Shown in pieces: positions 9,542 to 20,356 of a stretch of DNA of 27,391 nucleotides (position 1 is the stretch's first letter; every line of letters starts with the position of its first letter). The translations under genes were made by a program, and so were the position numbers. This stretch comes from Eubacteriales bacterium (lineage in GTDB: Bacteria > Bacillota > Clostridia > Oscillospirales > CAG-272), in assembly GCA_045627165.1 (NCBI GenBank), contig JAZQNC010000172.1:1-27391 (forward strand), written 5' to 3'. The notes beneath the pieces are model-generated. The model had not been told where the DNA came from, ran no database searches, and saw only the letters and a list, made by a program, of their open reading frames with translations.

Positions 9542-11314
9542 ATGAAAAACACAAACGCCATCCATTCATTCGGAAACGGAAGCTTTCTCATATACGGACA
9601 GGGTCCGAACATCATTTCAATGTTCGCCGGCGACTATTCTTCACCTTCCATAGCTTCCCTTGAGCTTGAAAACTGCATAGGATATGATATTCCGGCACGG
9701 AGTCTGGGAAACTGGACCTGCCGCGCGGAAACCGGCAGCGGCAGTGTTACGTTTGATGATGTGCTTGATCCGCACTCGAATATATTCGTGCGCAGGGTGA
9801 GCGCCGAATGCGGCGCGGTCATTTCGGTAAAGACACATCCGAACTGCAGAACGTACAGCGAAAACGGCGGTACTGTCGCTGTCCTTCCCAAAGGCACCAT
9901 GTATTTCACGAGCGTAGTCTGCACCGGAGAATACCGTCTTTACATCAGCTGCGGCGGATGCGCATCTTTCGACGGCGGCAGTATCATGATTTCACAGGGC
10001 GAGGGCTGCATAATCGTCCGTGCGCTTCGTCTCGATACCGACAACGCCCGCTCTCCCGTTCTGCCTTCATATACCGACACGGAGGCTGTACAGCGCAGCT
10101 CGGATGAATACTGGAAGGCTTATTTTGCCGGAATAACGAAGTATCCCGGCATTGAGGATATTGAAGAAAGCGTTGCCTACACCATAAAAACTCAGCAGTC
10201 CCGCGACGGAGGGATCGCCGCAGGTCATTATTACCCGATGGCTTATGTCCGCGATCAGGCGGGTACCGCGAGGGGGCTTATCAGTCTCGGACTTGTTGAC
10301 GACGCGAAGAAGATCGTTGAATTCTGGAACGAAAAATTCACAAGATACGGCAATATCCACAACGCCGAGACTATGGGAAATTTCGACGGCCGTCTCGTTT
10401 TTTCAAACGATGAGGTGGAGGTTCCCGCATATGTGATGCTGACCGCGTTTTTCTGCGCGGAAGCACAGTCGGATTTCGGATGGCTTGAAAAACTCCGTCC
10501 GATGCTTTCCTACGCCGCGTCGGTACAGTGCGGCCACGTCGTCAGAGGCATGACCGGATTTTCCGGAGACGAGACCTATATTGCCGGCGGAATGTTCCCG
10601 AGATGCTTTCTCTATCACGGCTCCGCAGAATCCACCATGCTCTTTATTCAGAGCGTCGAAAAATACATCGGATATTTCGGCGATGACGGAAAGCTCGGCA
10701 CGGCGCTGAACGAAGCAAAGAACAGCTTCCGTGAAAATTTCATAATCGATGGCAGACTGTACGCAAATCAGCCTCTTCGTGAAAAATACGCGGTGCTTCC
10801 GCGCTTCCATTTCGGCTACTGCGATTACTGCGAGCTTGCTCATAAGCCCGCGCCGCTGACATGGCTTGAACGCAGGGAAGACGGTCTGTATGCCTGTCCG
10901 GACTGCTTCACGTCTCCCGGAATCCCGATACCGGAGAAGAATCCCCGTATGCTCGGCTCTGTCTCCCTTTCGGTGTTCTGGCACGGCTTTGACATACTGA
11001 CCGACGAAGAAAAATCCCAAACGGTGAAGCCCTTCCTCGATGCGCTCGAAAAGCGCGGAAACGTGTACTCCTCTGCCGACGGAGAAACCGCGACCGGCTA
11101 CGACTACGCCTATCTGCTCGAAGCCCTTGTCAAAACAGATTCGCCCTGCTGCTCCGAAATGCTGGATAAAACGCTCGAAGCCCTTGACGAATCGGGAAGC
11201 TGGTCGGAATATTACCGTGAGGGCATTCCGTACAACTGCCGCAACCGCCCGTGGGAAAGCGGTATCAATATCTCCGCAGTGATCGACGCGGTAAAGCACA
11301 TACGCGGAATATAG
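9542..11314 (+). CDS. Putative (alpha/alpha)6 six-hairpin glycosidase-like protein (GH15/amylo-glucosidase-like) with an inserted Cys4 motif
   Basis: YPMAYVRD resembles the GH15-type WxRD motif. A beta-rich N-terminal region precedes a helical region, with acidic candidates (DEVE, GDETY, PWES). Exact family cannot be fixed without an HMM search. No signal peptide seen. Confidence 0.6.
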   Translation: MKNTNAIHSFGNGSFLIYGQGPNIISMFAGDYSSPSIASLELENCIGYDIPARSLGNWTCRAETGSGSVTFDDVLDPHSNIFVRRVSAECGAVISVKTHPNCRTYSENGGTVAVLPKGTMYFTSVVCTGEYRLYISCGGCASFDGGSIMISQGEGCIIVRALRLDTDNARSPVLPSYTDTEAVQRSSDEYWKAYFAGITKYPGIEDIEESVAYTIKTQQSRDGGIAAGHYYPMAYVRDQAGTARGLISLGLVDDAKKIVEFWNEKFTRYGNIHNAETMGNFDGRLVFSNDEVEVPAYVMLTAFFCAEAQSDFGWLEKLRPMLSYAASVQCGHVVRGMTGFSGDETYIAGGMFPRCFLYHGSAESTMLFIQSVEKYIGYFGDDGKLGTALNEAKNSFRENFIIDGRLYANQPLREKYAVLPRFHFGYCDYCELAHKPAPLTWLERREDGLYACPDCFTSPGIPIPEKNPRMLGSVSLSVFWHGFDILTDEEKSQTVKPFLDALEKRGNVYSSADGETATGYDYAYLLEALVKTDSPCCSEMLDKTLEALDESGSWSEYYREGIPYNCRNRPWESGINISAVIDAVKHIRGI

Positions 11315-13932: not shown

Positions 13933-13980
13933 ATAAAATACTGCTCTGCGTCGAATTAACGGCACAGAGCAGATTTTTAT
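13933..13980. terminator. Bidirectional terminator between convergent genes
   Basis: CTGCTCTG (13941-13948) / CAGAGCAG (13965-13972) with an inner CGT/ACG stem, flanked by ATAAAAT and ATTTTTAT. Confidence 0.75.
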
Positions 13981-14696
13981 TCATTTTCACTTTTTTCGTC
14001 GCGGACAAATTTAACCGTCAGAAGCATCAGATAATAACCAAGCACGTTTTTCGCCGCCGCGATAACATAACCGAGGACGACCGAAACTACCTCCGGGACG
14101 GTAGCGGCTCTGAAATACTCTGTGGTAAGCTCGATCACGAAATTCACCGTTAGATATATCTCATATCCCAGATCTGCCGCCGCGAAGAATATCACCGCCC
14201 ATCGTATACTGCGCATCAGCGTCCTGTCATAAGCACCTTCGTCATGGATAATGCACAGTCCCGCGGCTGTCAGCGACACAAACAGCGGGAGCAGTCTGAA
14301 AAGCAGGCAGTTCACTCCGAAGAGCAGCGAATAGTATACCAGATTCGTGCGCAGCTCAGAGATGAATATCGCGCCCGAAATAACCGAAGCGGCATAGGGC
14401 AGAATCAGGGAAACCGCGCAGAGAGCGACCCCTCCGGCGCGCTTTATGCCCGTGAAATACATCATAAAGCACATACACAGCGCAACGGCGAAATAGGGCA
14501 GAATATATGTCAGCGCGGTATTCACAACGTCAAGAACATTGTACAGCCCTTCCATCATTATGTCACCGCTGATATATTCAAGCAGGCAGCCGAGTCCGAA
14601 GGAAACTGCCGCCGGAAGCGCAAACATCAGAACGATAACGGACAGTATGAATTTTTTTCTGTCGAGGGGAGCAAGAACGCCTTTTACTTTTTCCAT
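13977..14696 (-). CDS. Hypothetical polytopic membrane protein (about 6 TM helices)
   Basis: 239-aa ORF with about six hydrophobic segments, starting 1 bp after the MFS stop. No family motif recognised. Confidence 0.72.
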   Translation of the reverse strand: MEKVKGVLAPLDRKKFILSVIVLMFALPAAVSFGLGCLLEYISGDIMMEGLYNVLDVVNTALTYILPYFAVALCMCFMMYFTGIKRAGGVALCAVSLILPYAASVISGAIFISELRTNLVYYSLLFGVNCLLFRLLPLFVSLTAAGLCIIHDEGAYDRTLMRSIRWAVIFFAAADLGYEIYLTVNFVIELTTEYFRAATVPEVVSVVLGYVIAAAKNVLGYYLMLLTVKFVRDEKSENE

Positions 14697-14697
14697 T

Positions 14698-15942
14698 TCA
14701 CGAACCTTTTTTCGACGGTTTATTTTTGTTACCCGCGAATATCACCGGCATTATCAGCACCATGATTACAGGGAAAATCGCAGCGGCTCCGAGTCCGTAA
14801 TGCAGACCCGCGCTTTCACCCAGCGTGCTGTATTTTATTACCGAATCGGAAACCATGCCTGTAAGCCACGGGCCGAAGGAGCATCCTATATCTCCGCCCA
14901 TGGCGAGCACGGAGAACATCGGAGTTCCGCCTCCGGGGTAGGCCGCCGAAGCCACCGACAGCATTCCCGGCCACATAAGCGATACCATAAAGCCGCAGAG
15001 CGCGCAGGCGGCAAGTCCCAGCACCGCGTTCGACGAGAATACCGTCATAGCATAGCAGGCAACACAGCCGAAGGAAAGCAGCCATATTGCTTTCGCCGGA
15101 TTGATCTTCTGACCGAACAGACCGTAGGCGGTTCTTCCCACACCCATAAATACCGCAAAGAGGCAGGGTCCGAGAAGGTCTCCCACAGTCTTGGTAACTC
15201 CCAGACCGCGCTCCGCAAAGAGCGAAGCCCACTGGGACATGGACTGTTCGGACGCACCTGAGCATATCATCATCAGAACTATGCAGATAAACACCTTTTT
15301 GCGGAAAAGCTCACGCAGCGGAACGCTTTTCTCATCGCCGTCCTCAAGCTCGTTTATCGGAACTACCGAAAAACGGTAAATATTGAAAGCCGGTATCACC
15401 GCCCAGACTATCGGAAGCACATACCACAGGTCGTGTCCTATCAACGCGAGAATGATAGTGGTCAGCATCACCACAATGACCTGTCCCCAGCTGTAAAAGC
15501 CGTGGAGCAGCGACATTGTCGAAGCCTTGGCGTCTCCGGGTACAGCCTCGACGATAGGGCTGACGAGTACCTCGATTATTCCGCTTCCCGCCGAAAACAG
15601 CACCGTGCAGAGAAGCAGCGCGGCATAGGCTGGCGTTCCGCTTCCGGCCATTTCGGGAAATATTCCCATCATCACCAGTCCGATAGATGCAAGAATATGG
15701 GCAATAACCACATATCTGCGATACCCCAGCAGCTTCGTAATCTTTATCGACAGCAAATCCACTCCTATCTGCGTGAAGAAATTCAGCAGAACGAGAAAGC
15801 TCAGCTGCGCGTATGACAGTCCGAAGCGTTCACGGAAGACTATGAACAGCGTGGGCGGCAGATTTACTATGATCGCCTGTGTTATGTAGGCGAAATAGCA
15901 GGTATACAGAGTATCCTGGTAGGTGTATTCTCTTTTCTTCAT
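14698..15942 (-). CDS. MFS transporter (FucP/glucose-galactose permease-like)
   Basis: 414 aa with about 12 hydrophobic helices. Motifs GSGIIEVLVSPIVEA, SLLHGFYSWG, CSGASEQSMSQWAS and GLHYG. Confidence 0.88.
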   Translation of the reverse strand: MKKREYTYQDTLYTCYFAYITQAIIVNLPPTLFIVFRERFGLSYAQLSFLVLLNFFTQIGVDLLSIKITKLLGYRRYVVIAHILASIGLVMMGIFPEMAGSGTPAYAALLLCTVLFSAGSGIIEVLVSPIVEAVPGDAKASTMSLLHGFYSWGQVIVVMLTTIILALIGHDLWYVLPIVWAVIPAFNIYRFSVVPINELEDGDEKSVPLRELFRKKVFICIVLMMICSGASEQSMSQWASLFAERGLGVTKTVGDLLGPCLFAVFMGVGRTAYGLFGQKINPAKAIWLLSFGCVACYAMTVFSSNAVLGLAACALCGFMVSLMWPGMLSVASAAYPGGGTPMFSVLAMGGDIGCSFGPWLTGMVSDSVIKYSTLGESAGLHYGLGAAAIFPVIMVLIMPVIFAGNKNKPSKKGS

Positions 15943-15951
15943 AACCGTTTA

Positions 15952-16230
15952 TTACTTTATCGTGACTTTTATCGAGGTATCCTCGAGCATACCGCACAGC
16001 GCATCGATATACACGCCCACGTTTTCACGGGCAGACTCGGGACAGATCAGGGTAAACTCCGGCTTCTCCTTCATTGAGGTAAGCACGTCGTGAAGCGCGT
16101 CGAGGTTGTTTCCGATATATTCTATTCCGTTCCTGTCCAGTTCGGGGGCAAGCTGACCTCTTATCATATCATGAAGGGCGGAACGGTTTTCTATGCCGCG
16201 GCAGTCAACCGTAACATTTATGCAGGCCAT
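15952..16230 (-). CDS. Barstar-family ribonuclease inhibitor
   Basis: YIGNNLDALHDVLT aligns by eye with barstar YYGENLDALWDCLT. It lies 6 bp downstream of a barnase-like gene and has a GGAGAGG RBS. Confidence 0.92.
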   Translation of the reverse strand: MACINVTVDCRGIENRSALHDMIRGQLAPELDRNGIEYIGNNLDALHDVLTSMKEKPEFTLICPESARENVGVYIDALCGMLEDTSIKVTIK

Positions 16231-16236
16231 TTTTTA

Positions 16237-16998
16237 TCATTCCTCTCCGTAGAGCAGAGTAAAGCTCTCGTAATGATCGTCGGTATAGTATATAAGTCCG
16301 TCATTTGAGAAAATAATGCGCTTTGCGCCTCTTGAGGACTTCTTATAGGTATCAATATCGCACTCGGTGTATTGTCTGCCCTTCTTTTTGGGCAGCAGTC
16401 CCTCGTAGTTTCCGAAATAGTCGCCGCCGATGCATTTGCCCGGCGCGTATTTTTCGAGACCTCCTCCGGGCCATCCCAGATCCTGAGCCTCGCTTTTGGT
16501 TATGTAATTTTTCGGAAGACGGCCGTAGGTGTGGATGTAGAGCGCGACGTCATCCTTTTTGTAATATACTCCGTCCTCGTCTATCGCGGGTTTGGTTTCA
16601 GGCGCTTCGGTGACGGGAGGCTCTGTTTCGGGAGCCTTCGTTTCGGGAGTTTCGGTGACGGGAGGCTCTGTCTCGGGAGCCTTTGTTTCGGGAGCTTCGG
16701 TGACGGGAGGCTCGGTCTCGACGGGTTCCGGTTCGGTATCTTCCGCTATTGTTTCGGACGCTTCGGATTGCGGAGGCTCGGTATCGATAACGGTAATATC
16801 CTGCGGATCGTCGTCCTCTTCAAAATCATCGGCAAGGCCGCTTATAAGCGATTCAAGCTCATCGGCAATATACTGCGCGTCCTCCTCGTCGAGCAGATCC
16901 GACATTCCGCATCCCGCGAGGGCGGAAATACCCAGAACGGCACAGAGCAGAAGCGAAAGCAGACGAAGCGTGAGCTTCCGCTGAGATATTTTATTCAT
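16237..16998 (-). CDS. Barnase-like (microbial guanyl-preferring) ribonuclease lipoprotein with an acidic Pro/Glu/Thr stalk
   Basis: Start is likely ATG 16998 (GAGGA RBS), 253 aa, with lipobox LAG-C at Cys30. The C-terminal domain LPKNYITKSEAQDLGW...IGGDYF...TECD...SRGAKRII...YYTDDHYESF matches barnase, with equivalents of Lys27, Glu73, Arg83, Arg87 and His102. Confidence 0.92.
   Translation of the reverse strand: MNKISQRKLTLRLLSLLLCAVLGISALAGCGMSDLLDEEDAQYIADELESLISGLADDFEEDDDPQDITVIDTEPPQSEASETIAEDTEPEPVETEPPVTEAPETKAPETEPPVTETPETKAPETEPPVTEAPETKPAIDEDGVYYKKDDVALYIHTYGRLPKNYITKSEAQDLGWPGGGLEKYAPGKCIGGDYFGNYEGLLPKKKGRQYTECDIDTYKKSSRGAKRIIFSNDGLIYYTDDHYESFTLLYGEE
16592..16720 (-). repeat. 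45-bp coding tandem repeat (15-aa unit TEPPVTEAPETKAPE), about 3 copies
   Basis: TTCGGTGACGGGAGGCTC recurs at 16606, 16651 and 16696 on the + strand, an exact 45-nt period. Confidence 0.93.
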
Positions 16999-17035
16999 AA
17001 TGTTTATCCTCGGGAGCATATCAGACACTTATTCA

Positions 17036-17068
17036 TTACAAAACATGGGGACGCAGAGCGCATCCCCG
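17036..17068 (-). terminator. Probable intrinsic terminator after cysD
   Basis: Minus strand reads GGGGATGC-GCTCT-GCGTCCCC (17067-17047, one G-U pair), followed by ATGTTTTGT. Confidence 0.68.
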
Positions 17069-17092: not shown

Positions 17093-17974
17093 TCACATAT
17101 AACCGTTCTTGCGGAGCTCTTCGAGTCCTCCACCGTCCTCTTTGTCCTGTTCACGGCCTGAACGCTCGGCAATATTGGCAAACTTACCGGTCTTCAGCTC
17201 CTCGATGACTTCGTCGAGGTTCTTCGCTGTGGATTCAACCGGCTTCGTGCAGGGCCAGCATCCCAGAGAACGGTAACGCTTACCCTCGCCCTGGTCGAAA
17301 TAGAGGGACACTACGGGCACGTTTTCACGTCTGATGTATTCCCATACGTCAAGCTCGGTCCAGTCAAGCAGAGGATGAATGCGGACATGAGTGCCGGGAG
17401 CGAAGTCGGTCTTGTACTGTCCCCAGAATTCGGGGGGCTGATCTCCGATATCCCAGTCGTTGTTCTTGTCACGGGGCGAGAAATACCTTTCCTTGGAACG
17501 GCTTCCCTCTTCATCGGCGCGCACGCCGACGATAACGCCGGTGTAGGGCTCGGTATTTGTATCGCGCTCATACATTCCGGTATCGTGGTTCATGCGGTAA
17601 CGGGGCCAGTCGCCGGCGAGAGTATGGGCGAGCGCCTCGGTCTTGAGGTTTTTGCAGCATTCGAGACGGGTGCAGTTGCCGTCGGGGAAAGTGCGCTTGG
17701 CGTCAAGAGCTTCCCTGTTCTCGCCGTATATCATATCGAGATGCCATTCTCTTGCGAGACGGTCGCGGTACTCTATCATTTCGGGGATCTTGTAGTGGGT
17801 ATCAACGTGTACAAGCGGAAAAGGAACCTGACCGAAAAATGCGCGGCGGGCAAGACAGAGCAGAACAGTGCTGTCCTTGCCTATCGACCACAGCATACAC
17901 AGGCTCTTGAACTGGCTGTAGGCTTCACGAAGAATATGTATACTTTTGTTTTCCAATTCGTCAAGATGATCCAT
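17093..17974 (-). CDS. cysD: Sulfate adenylyltransferase subunit 2
   Basis: [16 protein letters not shown]-motif [59 protein letters not shown] and C-terminal ER.GR.QD...GYM. GAGGTG RBS. Confidence 0.93.
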
Positions 17975-18002: not shown

Positions 18003-19376
18003 TTACTGTATGTTTTCTTTTCGGTTTACAATATAGAATCCCATGTCGTTGCGGGTATGGGTGCGGTTATAATACATCGGACTGTCGTAGCCGTCGAGCT
18101 GGCGGAATATCGCTCCTGCTTCCTCGCAGATTATCTGCATCGCGGCGGTGTCCCACTCCATCGTGGGGCCGTGACGGTAATATACGTCCGCCATTCCCTC
18201 AGCAATGCGGCATCCCTTGAGAGAGCTTCCGGCGGAGATCACCTCGGCTACCTTCGCACGGTACTCGTCGGTAAGCATATTGTCCTTGCCGCCCGAATGA
18301 GAACGGCTCTCCATCATGATTATCCCGTCAGTTCTGTCGGACACGCGGAGCTTGTCGGTACTGCCGTTTACGGTTCTGTACGCTCCGAAGCCCTCACGCG
18401 CGTAATACAGCTCTCCCGTCACGGGCACATAAATAACGCCCATTACGCTGCGATGTTCCTCGACCAGCGCGATATTCACGGTAAATTCGCCGTTGCGCTT
18501 TATGAATTCCTTCGTGCCGTCAAGAGGATCGACCACGAAGCAGAAGCGGCTGCGCATACGGGACAGGCTGTCCTCGTTTTCCTCGGTCAGCAGGGCGATG
18601 CAGGGAAAATCCTTCGTCAGTATCTCGGTGATTATACCGTTTGCCGCAAGATCGGCTTCGGTAAGGGGAGACCTGTCGTCCTTTATCTGCACCGAGAAAT
18701 CCCGGCTGTATATCTCCAGTATCTTCTCTCCAGCCTTTACGGCAGCGTCCTTCATCACTTCAAGTATATGCTCGCGGTCGGGCTGCATACCTACGATAAA
18801 GTCGTAGAGTCTCCCGGCTTCATCCTCCGCGCTGCGGGTCTCGTCCCATTTTATAAGAAGGTCGGGGGATTCGGGAGCCTCGTAGGGCGAGGAAACGCCG
18901 GTGAAATTCTTTATCTCTCCGGCGAAAGCCTTCGCGTAAAGTCCCTTGACGTCACGTCTCGCGCACTCCTCAACAGGAGTATCGACATATACCTCGGTAA
19001 AGGCTACGCCTGCCTTTTCCGCGATACTCCGCGCATTGTCCCTCATTGCCTTCATGGGAGATATGGCGGAAACAATGGCGATGCATCCGCTGTCGGCGAT
19101 AAGCCTTGCGGCTTCGGCAATACGTCGGATATTCTCCGTTCTGTCTTCTTCGGAAAATCCCAGTCCGGCATTAAGTCCGAAACGGAGATTGTCTCCGTCA
19201 AGCAGATAGGCTCGCAGTCCGTTTTCCGTAAGAAGCTGCTCCGTCAGCACCGCTATCGTGGATTTGCCCGAACCGGAAAGTCCGGTCAGCCATATTATCC
19301 TCGGAAATGTCCCGCCCGTTCTTATGCGGTCCGCGCGGGTGATTCTTCCATTGTGATATGTAATGTTCTCTGTCAT
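18003..19376 (-). CDS. cysC: Fusion of adenylyl-sulfate kinase (CysC, N-terminal) and 3'(2'),5'-bisphosphate nucleotidase (CysQ, C-terminal)
   Basis: Start is likely ATG 19376, 457 aa. CysC motifs: [51 protein letters not shown]. CysQ motifs: KDDRSPLTEAD, VDPLDGTKEF, SRSH, GSSLK, EWDTAA. One continuous frame. Confidence 0.93.
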   Translation of the reverse strand: MTENITYHNGRITRADRIRTGGTFPRIIWLTGLSGSGKSTIAVLTEQLLTENGLRAYLLDGDNLRFGLNAGLGFSEEDRTENIRRIAEAARLIADSGCIAIVSAISPMKAMRDNARSIAEKAGVAFTEVYVDTPVEECARRDVKGLYAKAFAGEIKNFTGVSSPYEAPESPDLLIKWDETRSAEDEAGRLYDFIVGMQPDREHILEVMKDAAVKAGEKILEIYSRDFSVQIKDDRSPLTEADLAANGIITEILTKDFPCIALLTEENEDSLSRMRSRFCFVVDPLDGTKEFIKRNGEFTVNIALVEEHRSVMGVIYVPVTGELYYAREGFGAYRTVNGSTDKLRVSDRTDGIIMMESRSHSGGKDNMLTDEYRAKVAEVISAGSSLKGCRIAEGMADVYYRHGPTMEWDTAAMQIICEEAGAIFRQLDGYDSPMYYNRTHTRNDMGFYIVNRKENIQ

Positions 19377-19378
19377 GT

Positions 19379-20245
19379 TCACTGCACTCCGTAATATCCG
19401 CTCCATGCCTTATTGCCCGCGCTGTCGGTGATCTCAAATCTCGCCCAGATGTCACGCTCGGTAACGGTATATTCTCTCTCTGTCAGATCCTCGCCGCAGA
19501 TACATCTTCCGCTTATCCAGACGGCTCCGGTCTGCGCCGTTATGGTGTTTACCGGCGTACATTCAAGGTGAAGCTTATTGCCATCCCTTGTGACCTCCAG
19601 CCGCGGTCCGCGTGAGGCGTAGAGATCGCCGTTTTTTATCGCGGAAAAATAATCGCTGTCCGAAGTATACACGAAGGAGCTTCGCGCCTCGCCCTTCCAG
19701 AAATGGGTGTCATCCGCCGCGTGAAGCGCAAAACGGCATCCGGCTGAGGCAAGAATATCAAGAATCGAAGCGGAGTCCGCGCGGCTGCTGTTGTACGGCA
19801 CTATGTCGGACACCGCATTGTATATCTCCGCGCCGGCAAGACCGTGAAGCTTGATTATATCCTCCGGACGGTTCAGCGACCAGGCAGGATGAGCCAGTAT
19901 CGCCGCGCCTCCCGCCGCGTTTATCGCGTCGATGCAGAGCTGTGTCCTTTTCACCGAGCCTTCGAGACGGTAAGCGTCGTTTTTGGTTATCCCGATGGGA
20001 CATTTAAGCCCCACGCCTATGATGTGATATACTCCGTCCGCCGTGTTGTCGCCGACGTCACATTCGATGCCCGAAAACACCTTCATTCCCTCATATTCGC
20101 TTTCAGCGTTCTGTTTCCAGTGATCGGTCAGCGCGACGAAATCATATCCGGCGGCTCTGTATTCTTTCAGTGTTTCCTCGGGAGTTTTCGCCCCGTCGCT
20201 CACCTTCGTATGTATGTGAAGTCCGCCTTTATACTGCTTTTTCAT
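19379..20245 (-). CDS. PHP-domain metallohydrolase (CehA/McbA-like type)
   Basis: Start is likely ATG 20245 (GAGGA RBS), 288 aa. Motifs LHIHTKVSDG, LTDHW, YHI, AHPAWS, EIYN and ADDTH, plus a short beta-rich C-terminal domain. Confidence 0.85.
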   Translation of the reverse strand: MKKQYKGGLHIHTKVSDGAKTPEETLKEYRAAGYDFVALTDHWKQNAESEYEGMKVFSGIECDVGDNTADGVYHIIGVGLKCPIGITKNDAYRLEGSVKRTQLCIDAINAAGGAAILAHPAWSLNRPEDIIKLHGLAGAEIYNAVSDIVPYNSSRADSASILDILASAGCRFALHAADDTHFWKGEARSSFVYTSDSDYFSAIKNGDLYASRGPRLEVTRDGNKLHLECTPVNTITAQTGAVWISGRCICGEDLTEREYTVTERDIWARFEITDSAGNKAWSGYYGVQ

Positions 20246-20327: not shown

Positions 20328-20356
20328 ATTATATCACACAATTATAAATAATTCAA
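20328..20356 (-). promoter_or_regulatory. sigma70/sigmaA promoter of the PHP-cysCQ-cysD operon
   Basis: On the minus strand: TTGAAT (20356-20351), a 17-bp spacer, and TG-A-TATAAT (hexamer 20333-20328). Confidence 0.75.

Follow-up and report, generated by a model that had tools for sequence, protein, structure and literature searches.

The adenosine 5'-phosphosulfate (APS) kinase CysC synthesizes 3'-phosphoadenosine 5'-phosphosulfate (PAPS), and nucleotidases of the CysQ type remove the 3'-phosphate from PAPS and from 3'-phosphoadenosine 5'-phosphate (PAP). The DNA analyzed here (the window, 27,391 nucleotides of contig JAZQNC010000172.1, assembly GCA_045627165.1, from an Eubacteriales bacterium of the Oscillospirales lineage CAG-272, a member of the Clostridia of gut type) carries on its reverse strand a gene in which both enzymes are encoded as a single 457-residue chain, with CysC at the N-terminus and CysQ at the C-terminus. 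This CysC-CysQ fusion is real, conserved and recurrent, and is an architectural variant inside known PAPS metabolism that is undescribed as far as searched. Its most probable role is that of a two-function enzyme within a module for PAPS-dependent sulfation, in which it would both supply PAPS and clear PAP; the two catalytic activities, as well as a preference for PAP over PAPS, are inferred. Since the constituent enzymes are well known, the advance lies in the architecture and its pathway context, and not in new chemistry.

Two complete enzymes in one reading frame

The longest open reading frame (ORF) that includes the fusion, 18003-19406 on the reverse strand, comprises 467 residues when counted from the farthest ATG. 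The likely start of the protein is the ATG at 19376: the N-termini of homologues share the pattern MxxNI..H, a GGAG is located 10 nt upstream, and the codon lies 2 nt past the stop of the preceding gene, which encodes a PHP-type hydrolase. Within this frame, Pfam models identify an APS_kinase domain (PF01583) at residues 26-175 (1.7e-63, 213.6 bits against a cut-off of 21.1) and an Inositol_P domain (PF00459) at residues 200-433 (1.3e-48). The NCBIfam equivalog models concur, with apsK (TIGR00455) covering residues 8-193 at 218.7 bits (cut-off 138.7) and CysQ (TIGR01331) covering residues 205-440 at 241.1 bits, a modest margin over its cut-off of 228.8; the E. coli-type CysQ model NF008182 reaches only 182 bits on this domain, its cut-off being 379. 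These scores bear out the initial annotation of the window, which had described a complete CysC and a complete CysQ in a single 457-residue frame, and its domain coordinates match those obtained here (kinase at approximately 19376-18798, CysQ at approximately 18764-18006).

The APS kinase domain displays the motifs GLSGSGKS (residues 32-39), LDGDNLR (59-65), SAISP (103-107), KGLY (144-147) and FTG (158-160). In this enzyme family, the first of these is the Walker A P-loop, LDGDNxR participates in substrate binding and catalysis, ISP provides a serine, and KGLY and FTG belong to the lid. In an alignment of 122 fusion homologues, which are 35-84% identical, each of the five is either invariant or conserved to 90% or more. 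The CysQ domain carries the metal-binding motifs of the inositol monophosphatase (IMPase) superfamily in the form of EE265-266, D283-P-L-D286-G-T288 and W408-D409, which are invariant or nearly so in the same alignment; in a separate comparison, the EE, DPxDGT and WD motifs were kept in 18 of 18 fused and in 30-31 of 31 stand-alone CysQ sequences. The catalytic motifs of both domains are thus intact, as had been claimed, and the concept of a bifunctional CysC-CysQ polypeptide, that is, a single chain whose two active sites are preserved by sequence, is upheld. Redox control through the invariant residues C279 and C389 was also considered; these cysteines show the same conservation in stand-alone CysQ proteins of Clostridia and are therefore no fusion-specific feature, and the idea was abandoned.

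An AlphaFold2 model calculated on the 122-fusion alignment displays a mean predicted local distance difference test score (pLDDT) of 94.4 and a predicted template modeling score (pTM) of 0.85. For a two-domain protein, the latter value argues for a fixed mutual arrangement, and prediction of the domain interface, one of the checks proposed in the initial annotation, thus yields a confident packing. The modeled junction (pLDDT of approximately 90) has no disordered linker and is formed by a helix (183-195), a five-residue turn and a second helix (201-223); its length is constant in the homologue alignment. The kinase domain of the model superimposes onto the human, plant and M. tuberculosis APS kinases (2ofw, 4fxp and 4bzp) with TM-scores on target of 0.90-0.94 and root mean square deviations of 1.2-1.8 Å, and in sequence it shares 48-55% identity with the APS kinases of human PAPSS1, M. 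tuberculosis CysC and Penicillium. The closest solved structure for the second domain is that of B. thetaiotaomicron CysQ (3b8b, 42% identity). No PDB chain spanning both domains was identified by either sequence or fold search, and the fusion, which consists of kinase, CysQ and a junction of approximately 10 residues only, shows neither a regulatory domain nor any additional segment.

Distribution and origins of the fusion

The detection of two enzymes in one frame evokes the question of whether an error in sequencing or assembly merged two neighboring genes at the junction, or whether the locus is a decaying pseudogene. The source genome is indeed fragmented, being a bin of 348 contigs that is 66% complete, and in other lineages CysNC and CysQ lie adjacent to each other, at times one in-frame stop apart. 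However, the same fusion with the same junction length recurs in at least 120 protein clusters and in 20 further genomes, all of its catalytic residues are conserved, and the two-domain model is confident. Since these 20 genomes of the family were assembled independently and the fusion is uninterrupted in each of them, an artefact is very unlikely, to the point of being negligible, and for the family as a whole this explanation is refuted.

The clusters in question were obtained by searching 5.8 billion clustered proteins, which yielded at least 120 clusters at 90% identity that harbor the fusion, with lengths of 437-493 residues and 49-84% identity; among the clusters listed, every one contains both PF01583 and PF00459, and query coverage is 93% or higher with a single exception. 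These sequences originate from NCBI, JGI, ENA and Logan assemblies, and several additional CysC-CysQ clusters (35-51% identity) appear among 50%-identity representatives. At the level of genomes, an even sampling of the source organism's own family (401 genomes) revealed a full-length, stop-free fusion ORF in 21 of them, the source included, which corresponds to approximately 10 genera and 5% of the sample; in one further genome the fusion is divided between two contig ends, bringing the fusion-bearing total to 22. Within the same sample, CysQ occurs in 21 cases as a fusion vs 4 as a stand-alone protein, and the fusion is thus patchy in the family, yet the dominant form where CysQ occurs. One more fusion was identified in a genome from another family of the same order. 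Among 399 scored genomes sampled evenly across the class, none but the source's own carries the fusion, and separate CysQ, CysC or CysNC only were found.

The initial annotation, which was right in considering CysN or Sat to be the usual partners of CysC, had called for a search of the architecture and its taxonomic distribution; this search shows that the fusion is recurrent rather than a one-off, and that both domain orders exist. It had also held that the proposal would lose its ground if the architecture were common and already characterized. Recurrence was found, as the numbers above indicate, while a full-text literature search identified no published description of a CysC-CysQ fusion. 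In the source databases, the fusion proteins carry names such as 'CysQ', 'inositol monophosphatase', and 'adenylyl-sulfate kinase' or 'APS kinase'.

Proteins with the reverse order, CysQ-CysC, include P0112, P0123, P0127 and P0134, the last of which is named 'adenylyl-sulfate kinase' and originates from a Rickettsiales metagenome-assembled genome, and P0154 is a CysN-CysQ-CysC triple fusion of 893 residues. An additional reverse-order fusion, with a Clostridia-like CysQ, lies beside Clostridia-like CysN and CysD (L025:1808-3223) on a contig that was binned as Promethearchaeota, which suggests mis-binning or gene transfer. The existence of both domain orders and of a triple fusion indicates that the two activities have been joined more than once. 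In a quick tree of CysQ domains, all Clostridia sequences form one well-supported clade, within which the stand-alone CysQ proteins of other families are a supported subclade and the CysC-CysQ fusions an unresolved basal grade; a single origin of the CysC-CysQ fusions is possible.

A wide taxonomic spread, suggested by contig matches in a set with one genome per species, did not withstand inspection, since in most of these matches cysQ is a gene of its own downstream of CysNC, and there is no fusion; such false full-coverage matches concern Faecalicatena, Alkalibacillus, Rhizobiales, Sphingomonas, Mycobacterium, Nocardia and others. It is of note that cysQ lies next to cysNC (or cysC) and shares its frame in Faecalicatena, Alkalibacillus, Rhizobiales, Nitrospiraceae and sphingomonads. 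One stop codon intervenes, and the arrangement is thus a single mutation short of a fusion. In the loci L015, L016, L017, L027, L028 and L029 this stop lies at approximately 10570-10600, and in L018 at approximately 3100. That single in-frame stops are so frequent probably reflects how the matches were selected and ranked, since tblastn is able to read through one stop.

A small sulfotransferase co-occurs with the fusion, and CysH is mostly not found

CysD, CysN, CysC and CysQ are the classical cys genes of E. coli, and the module could thus be imagined to serve assimilatory sulfate reduction, in which PAPS is converted to sulfite for cysteine and CysQ clears the PAP left by PAPS reductase; 7 of the 21 fusion-bearing relatives do carry an NIR_SIR protein. 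However, the other 14 relatives do not, and CysH was not found in 20 of the 21 (14 of these 20 being at least 90% complete), their sole PAPS_reduct protein being the CysD that adjoins the fusion. The exception, G548, has additional weak PF01507 matches in ORFs of approximately 440 residues. In the 66%-complete bin of the source organism, no CysH was found (no PF01507 protein but CysD), nor any NIR_SIR sulfite reductase. On these counts, reductive assimilation via PAPS is not supported; this explanation is largely refuted, and we regard it as highly improbable.

The enzyme that does accompany the fusion is a small sulfotransferase of family PF13469 (approximately 245 residues, with a range of approximately 240-270), which forms one orthologous cluster in the nine loci compared. 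Of the 22 fusion-bearing genomes, 20 encode it, vs 1 of 379 family genomes without the fusion, and this co-occurrence extends over approximately nine genera. The two fusion-bearing genomes in which it is missing are the source bin itself and G481 (73% complete), and the only carrier without the fusion is G463 (79% complete). A sulfotransferase of a different type, with 350-370 residues, is encoded in six further genomes of the sample. The best matches of the small sulfotransferase in the PDB by sequence are tyrosylprotein sulfotransferases, and these are weak (E 0.01).

The lack of CysH, together with the co-occurring sulfotransferase, makes PAPS supply and PAP clearance for sulfation the likeliest role of the fusion. 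In the mechanism that we propose, CysD and CysN would generate APS from sulfate and ATP, and the N-terminal kinase domain of the fusion would phosphorylate APS to PAPS. The unlinked sulfotransferase of approximately 245 residues would subsequently move the sulfate group to an acceptor, releasing PAP, which the C-terminal CysQ domain would hydrolyze to AMP and phosphate, lifting product inhibition of the sulfotransferase. PAP is a by-product of sulfotransferases that inhibits at least one such enzyme of M. tuberculosis and is removed by CysQ (PMC3141025). The fusion would also fix the donor-making and by-product-clearing activities at a ratio of 1:1 each time a genome gains or expresses the module. 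Since the kinase would act before the transfer and the phosphatase after it, on PAP, which is no product of the kinase, the two activities need not be opposed. The initial annotation had raised both PAP detoxification, which we judge plausible, and a futile, ATP-burning cycle in need of control; given the missing CysH and the co-occurring sulfotransferase, its emphasis on the latter appears less likely to be justified.

Several observations weigh against the role in sulfation. The genomes behind the co-occurrence counts are kindred and non-independent, and no statistical weight is claimed for these numbers. No sulfotransferase was found in the 66%-complete source bin, either with PF13469, with PF00685, or with the protein of the nearest relative, and in the genomes that encode the small sulfotransferase, it is never linked to the module, its neighbors being variable (GH38, GH43, Gfo/Idh/MocA and others). 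In addition, internal initiation near Met199 or Met209 could generate a separate CysQ. Lastly, CysQ enzymes also hydrolyze PAPS (PMC3141025), and futile cycling or regulation within the fusion is thus possible.

The last point leads to a different view of the fusion, the one stressed in the initial annotation, for which a precedent exists in 6-phosphofructo-2-kinase/fructose-2,6-bisphosphatase (PFK-2/FBPase-2), where one polypeptide harbors opposed, reciprocally regulated activities on one signaling metabolite. By analogy, CysQ could mainly undo the action of the kinase by removing the 3'-phosphate from PAPS to regenerate APS, with reciprocally controlled sites that avoid the waste of ATP, so that the protein would operate as a homeostat for PAPS and APS. 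The CysQ of M. tuberculosis accepts both substrates, yielding AMP from PAP and APS from PAPS, and PAPS build-up is thought to be toxic (PMC3141025); in addition, the AlphaFold2 model places both active sites in one rigidly packed protein. As in PFK-2/FBPase-2, one chain combines kinase and phosphatase activities that can be directed at a single phosphate position of one metabolite. The folds of the two proteins are unrelated, however, the most likely substrate of the phosphatase here is another molecule (PAP), and neither a regulatory domain nor an added segment is visible. Moreover, the tight co-occurrence with a PAPS-consuming sulfotransferase makes PAP the obvious substrate, and many other bacteria pair a stand-alone CysQ with an adjacent, active CysNC and have no such switch. 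A homeostat is thus considered unlikely, and PAPS supply combined with PAP clearance is retained as the preferred function.

The CysN protein of this system provides a further element. The source cysN lies outside the window on another contig of the same bin (G000:C287:3293-5074, corresponding to L003:232-2013) and encodes a protein of 593 residues that scores 358 bits against a cut-off of 336. In an alignment of the source CysN with those of six other fusion-bearing genomes, the C-terminus is an APS-kinase-like domain without its catalytic parts: the P-loop GLSGSGKS is replaced by GGRESGKK, GYQYIGKK, GARATAKK and similar sequences, LDGDN is replaced by LGIGS or LGMGN, and the entire lid is absent; in one genus, an even shorter remnant is found. 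Judging from these replacements, the live kinase appears in effect to have shifted from CysN to CysQ. APS kinases are dimers, and the dead CysN tail could therefore dock the live kinase domain. Two structures of fungal ATP sulfurylase (1i2d and 1m8p) are among the PDB sequence matches, and by analogy with the kinase-like domain of that enzyme, the tail could alternatively serve as an allosteric sensor of PAPS or APS. A speculative extension, which we hold to be rather doubtful, is that the fusion kinase pairs with the dead CysN tail, and that CysD, CysN, kinase and PAP phosphatase would thus form one APS-channeling, PAP-recycling particle with four activities, of which the fusion would be the mobile half; this particle would feed a new small sulfotransferase family of gut Clostridia, whose acceptor might be derived from host or diet.

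Several known systems share some of these features. APS kinase is also fused to an enzyme of the PAPS pathway in CysN-CysC (NodQ and the sulfate-activating complex of M. tuberculosis) and in PAPS synthase (ATP sulfurylase-APS kinase); in these proteins the fusion joins consecutive steps, the formation of APS and its phosphorylation, whereas here the kinase is joined to an enzyme that would act after the sulfotransferase, and CysN retains just a catalytically dead kinase-like tail, unlike in CysN-CysC. Like E. coli CysQ and M. tuberculosis Rv2131c (PMC3141025), the second domain scores above the cut-off of the CysQ equivalog model and retains all metal-binding motifs; these two are single-domain proteins of approximately 250-290 residues, whereas the CysQ of the family studied here is mostly fused. 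The closest parallel in terms of pathway is the B. thetaiotaomicron locus BT_0411-BT_0416, in which PAPS biosynthesis genes lie beside the cholesterol sulfotransferase BT_0416 (PMC9417993). Like this locus, the module considered here would be a gut-bacterial source of PAPS for a sulfotransferase of the PF13469/PF00685 type and not for assimilation, but the B. thetaiotaomicron locus has separate PAPS genes and a linked sulfotransferase, while here kinase and phosphatase are fused and the sulfotransferase is unlinked and much shorter (approximately 245 residues).

A link between PAPS-dependent sulfation in gut bacteria and metabolites relevant to the host was established only recently, the cholesterol sulfate of Bacteroides being one example (PMC9417993). 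The fusion and its context point to a second sulfation module, of a Clostridia type, characterized by a fused enzyme for supply and clearance, a CysN with a dead kinase and a co-inherited small sulfotransferase, and the fusion provides an easily searchable marker for genomes of this kind. Inhibition by PAP is also a known problem in biocatalysis with PAPS regeneration (PMC10638397, PMC13321160), for which the fusion could represent a natural one-protein part. In addition, it offers a clean test case for how kinase and phosphatase activities directed at one 3'-position can coexist without waste of ATP.

Gene neighborhood

The surroundings of the fusion were compared in 20 loci. CysD directly follows the fusion in 18 of them (76-90% identity), CysN is in the same neighborhood in 12, and a PHP homologue, at times two, directly precedes the fusion in 7, yielding a conserved core that reads (PHP hydrolase)-CysC·CysQ-CysD-CysN, with CysD and CysN next to each other in relatives. 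The remaining neighbors, among them carbohydrate enzymes, a PotD-like ABC system and a large lipoprotein, are uninformative. The ABC transporter, which is found near several loci, was examined as a candidate for a linked sulfate transporter and rejected, being of the PotD (spermidine/putrescine) type, and the conserved neighbor of approximately 500 residues is a lipoprotein solute-binding protein without a family match.

In the window, the promoter-like site that precedes the PHP gene is the probable start of a three-gene unit, PHP-fusion-cysD (Table 1), in which the PHP gene is translationally coupled to the fusion, its stop being 2 nt ahead of the fusion ATG. In a PDB sequence search, the only match of the PHP protein was 2yb1, annotated as an amidohydrolase (E 1e-4, N-terminal metal site), and its match to the NCBIfam model for PHP-type 3',5'-nucleoside bisphosphate phosphatase is weak and partial (45 bits, cut-off 400). 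The family occurs in 116 of the 401 family genomes and is enriched in those with the fusion (16 of 22), often adjoining it. A role as a second PAP phosphatase specific to the module was considered and discarded, since a family present in 116 of 401 genomes is too widespread to be module-specific.

Table 1. Positions of the fused gene, its domains and neighboring features in the window, and of sulfotransferase genes in related genomes
Feature	Position	Strand	Basis and remarks
Promoter-like site	20328..20356	-	TTGAAT-17-TATAAT with upstream TG; consensus match alone, 10/12 positions
PHP / CehA-McbA-type metallohydrolase, 304 aa	19379-20293	-	PF02811; NF038032, 63 bits; weak NF041577
Fused CysC-CysQ gene	18003-19376	-	457-aa frame from ATG 19376, stop-free translation
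APS kinase (CysC) domain	18798..19376	-	aa 1-193; TIGR00455, intact P-loop and DGD, fold match
Junction, short and ordered	18765..18797	-	aa 194-204; end of kinase helix, 5-residue turn, start of CysQ helix
CysQ-type 3'(2'),5'-bisphosphate nucleotidase domain	18003..18764	-	aa 205-457 and stop; TIGR01331, metal motifs
CysD, ATP sulfurylase small subunit	17093-17974	-	NF003587, 351.6 bits; 28 nt downstream of fusion
Terminator-like hairpin after cysD	17047..17067	-	9 pairs, 6 G-C, T-rich tail; consensus match alone
Separate unit past the cysD terminator	13977-17028	-	Four tightly packed genes: barnase-like RNase, barstar, MFS permease, polytopic membrane protein
Sulfotransferase, examples from relatives	G012:C124:2439-3188; G607:C28:17049-17768; G467:C4:244807-245553		PF13469; 17 further genomes

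Stand-alone CysQ is also encountered close to the source organism. In G001, a genome of the same genus that is 95% complete, such a protein is encoded at G001:C103:9716-10555 (L119) and is 55% identical to the fused domain, while APS kinase, CysD and the sulfotransferase were not found in this genome; the protein may be the remnant of a lost module or may serve another source of PAP. The ORF upstream of this gene was inspected as a possible decayed kinase and proved to encode an unrelated membrane protein. In one relative, a polysaccharide lyase of family PL8 (the chondroitin/hyaluronan lyase family; L110:13597-15456, G467:C7) lies 2.3 kb off the module, which could hint at the use of sulfated glycans. 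In the window, the barnase-like RNase of the unit past cysD has a long, proline-rich N-terminal part, and in relatives, cysN is found at or near the position held here by the barnase/barstar unit.

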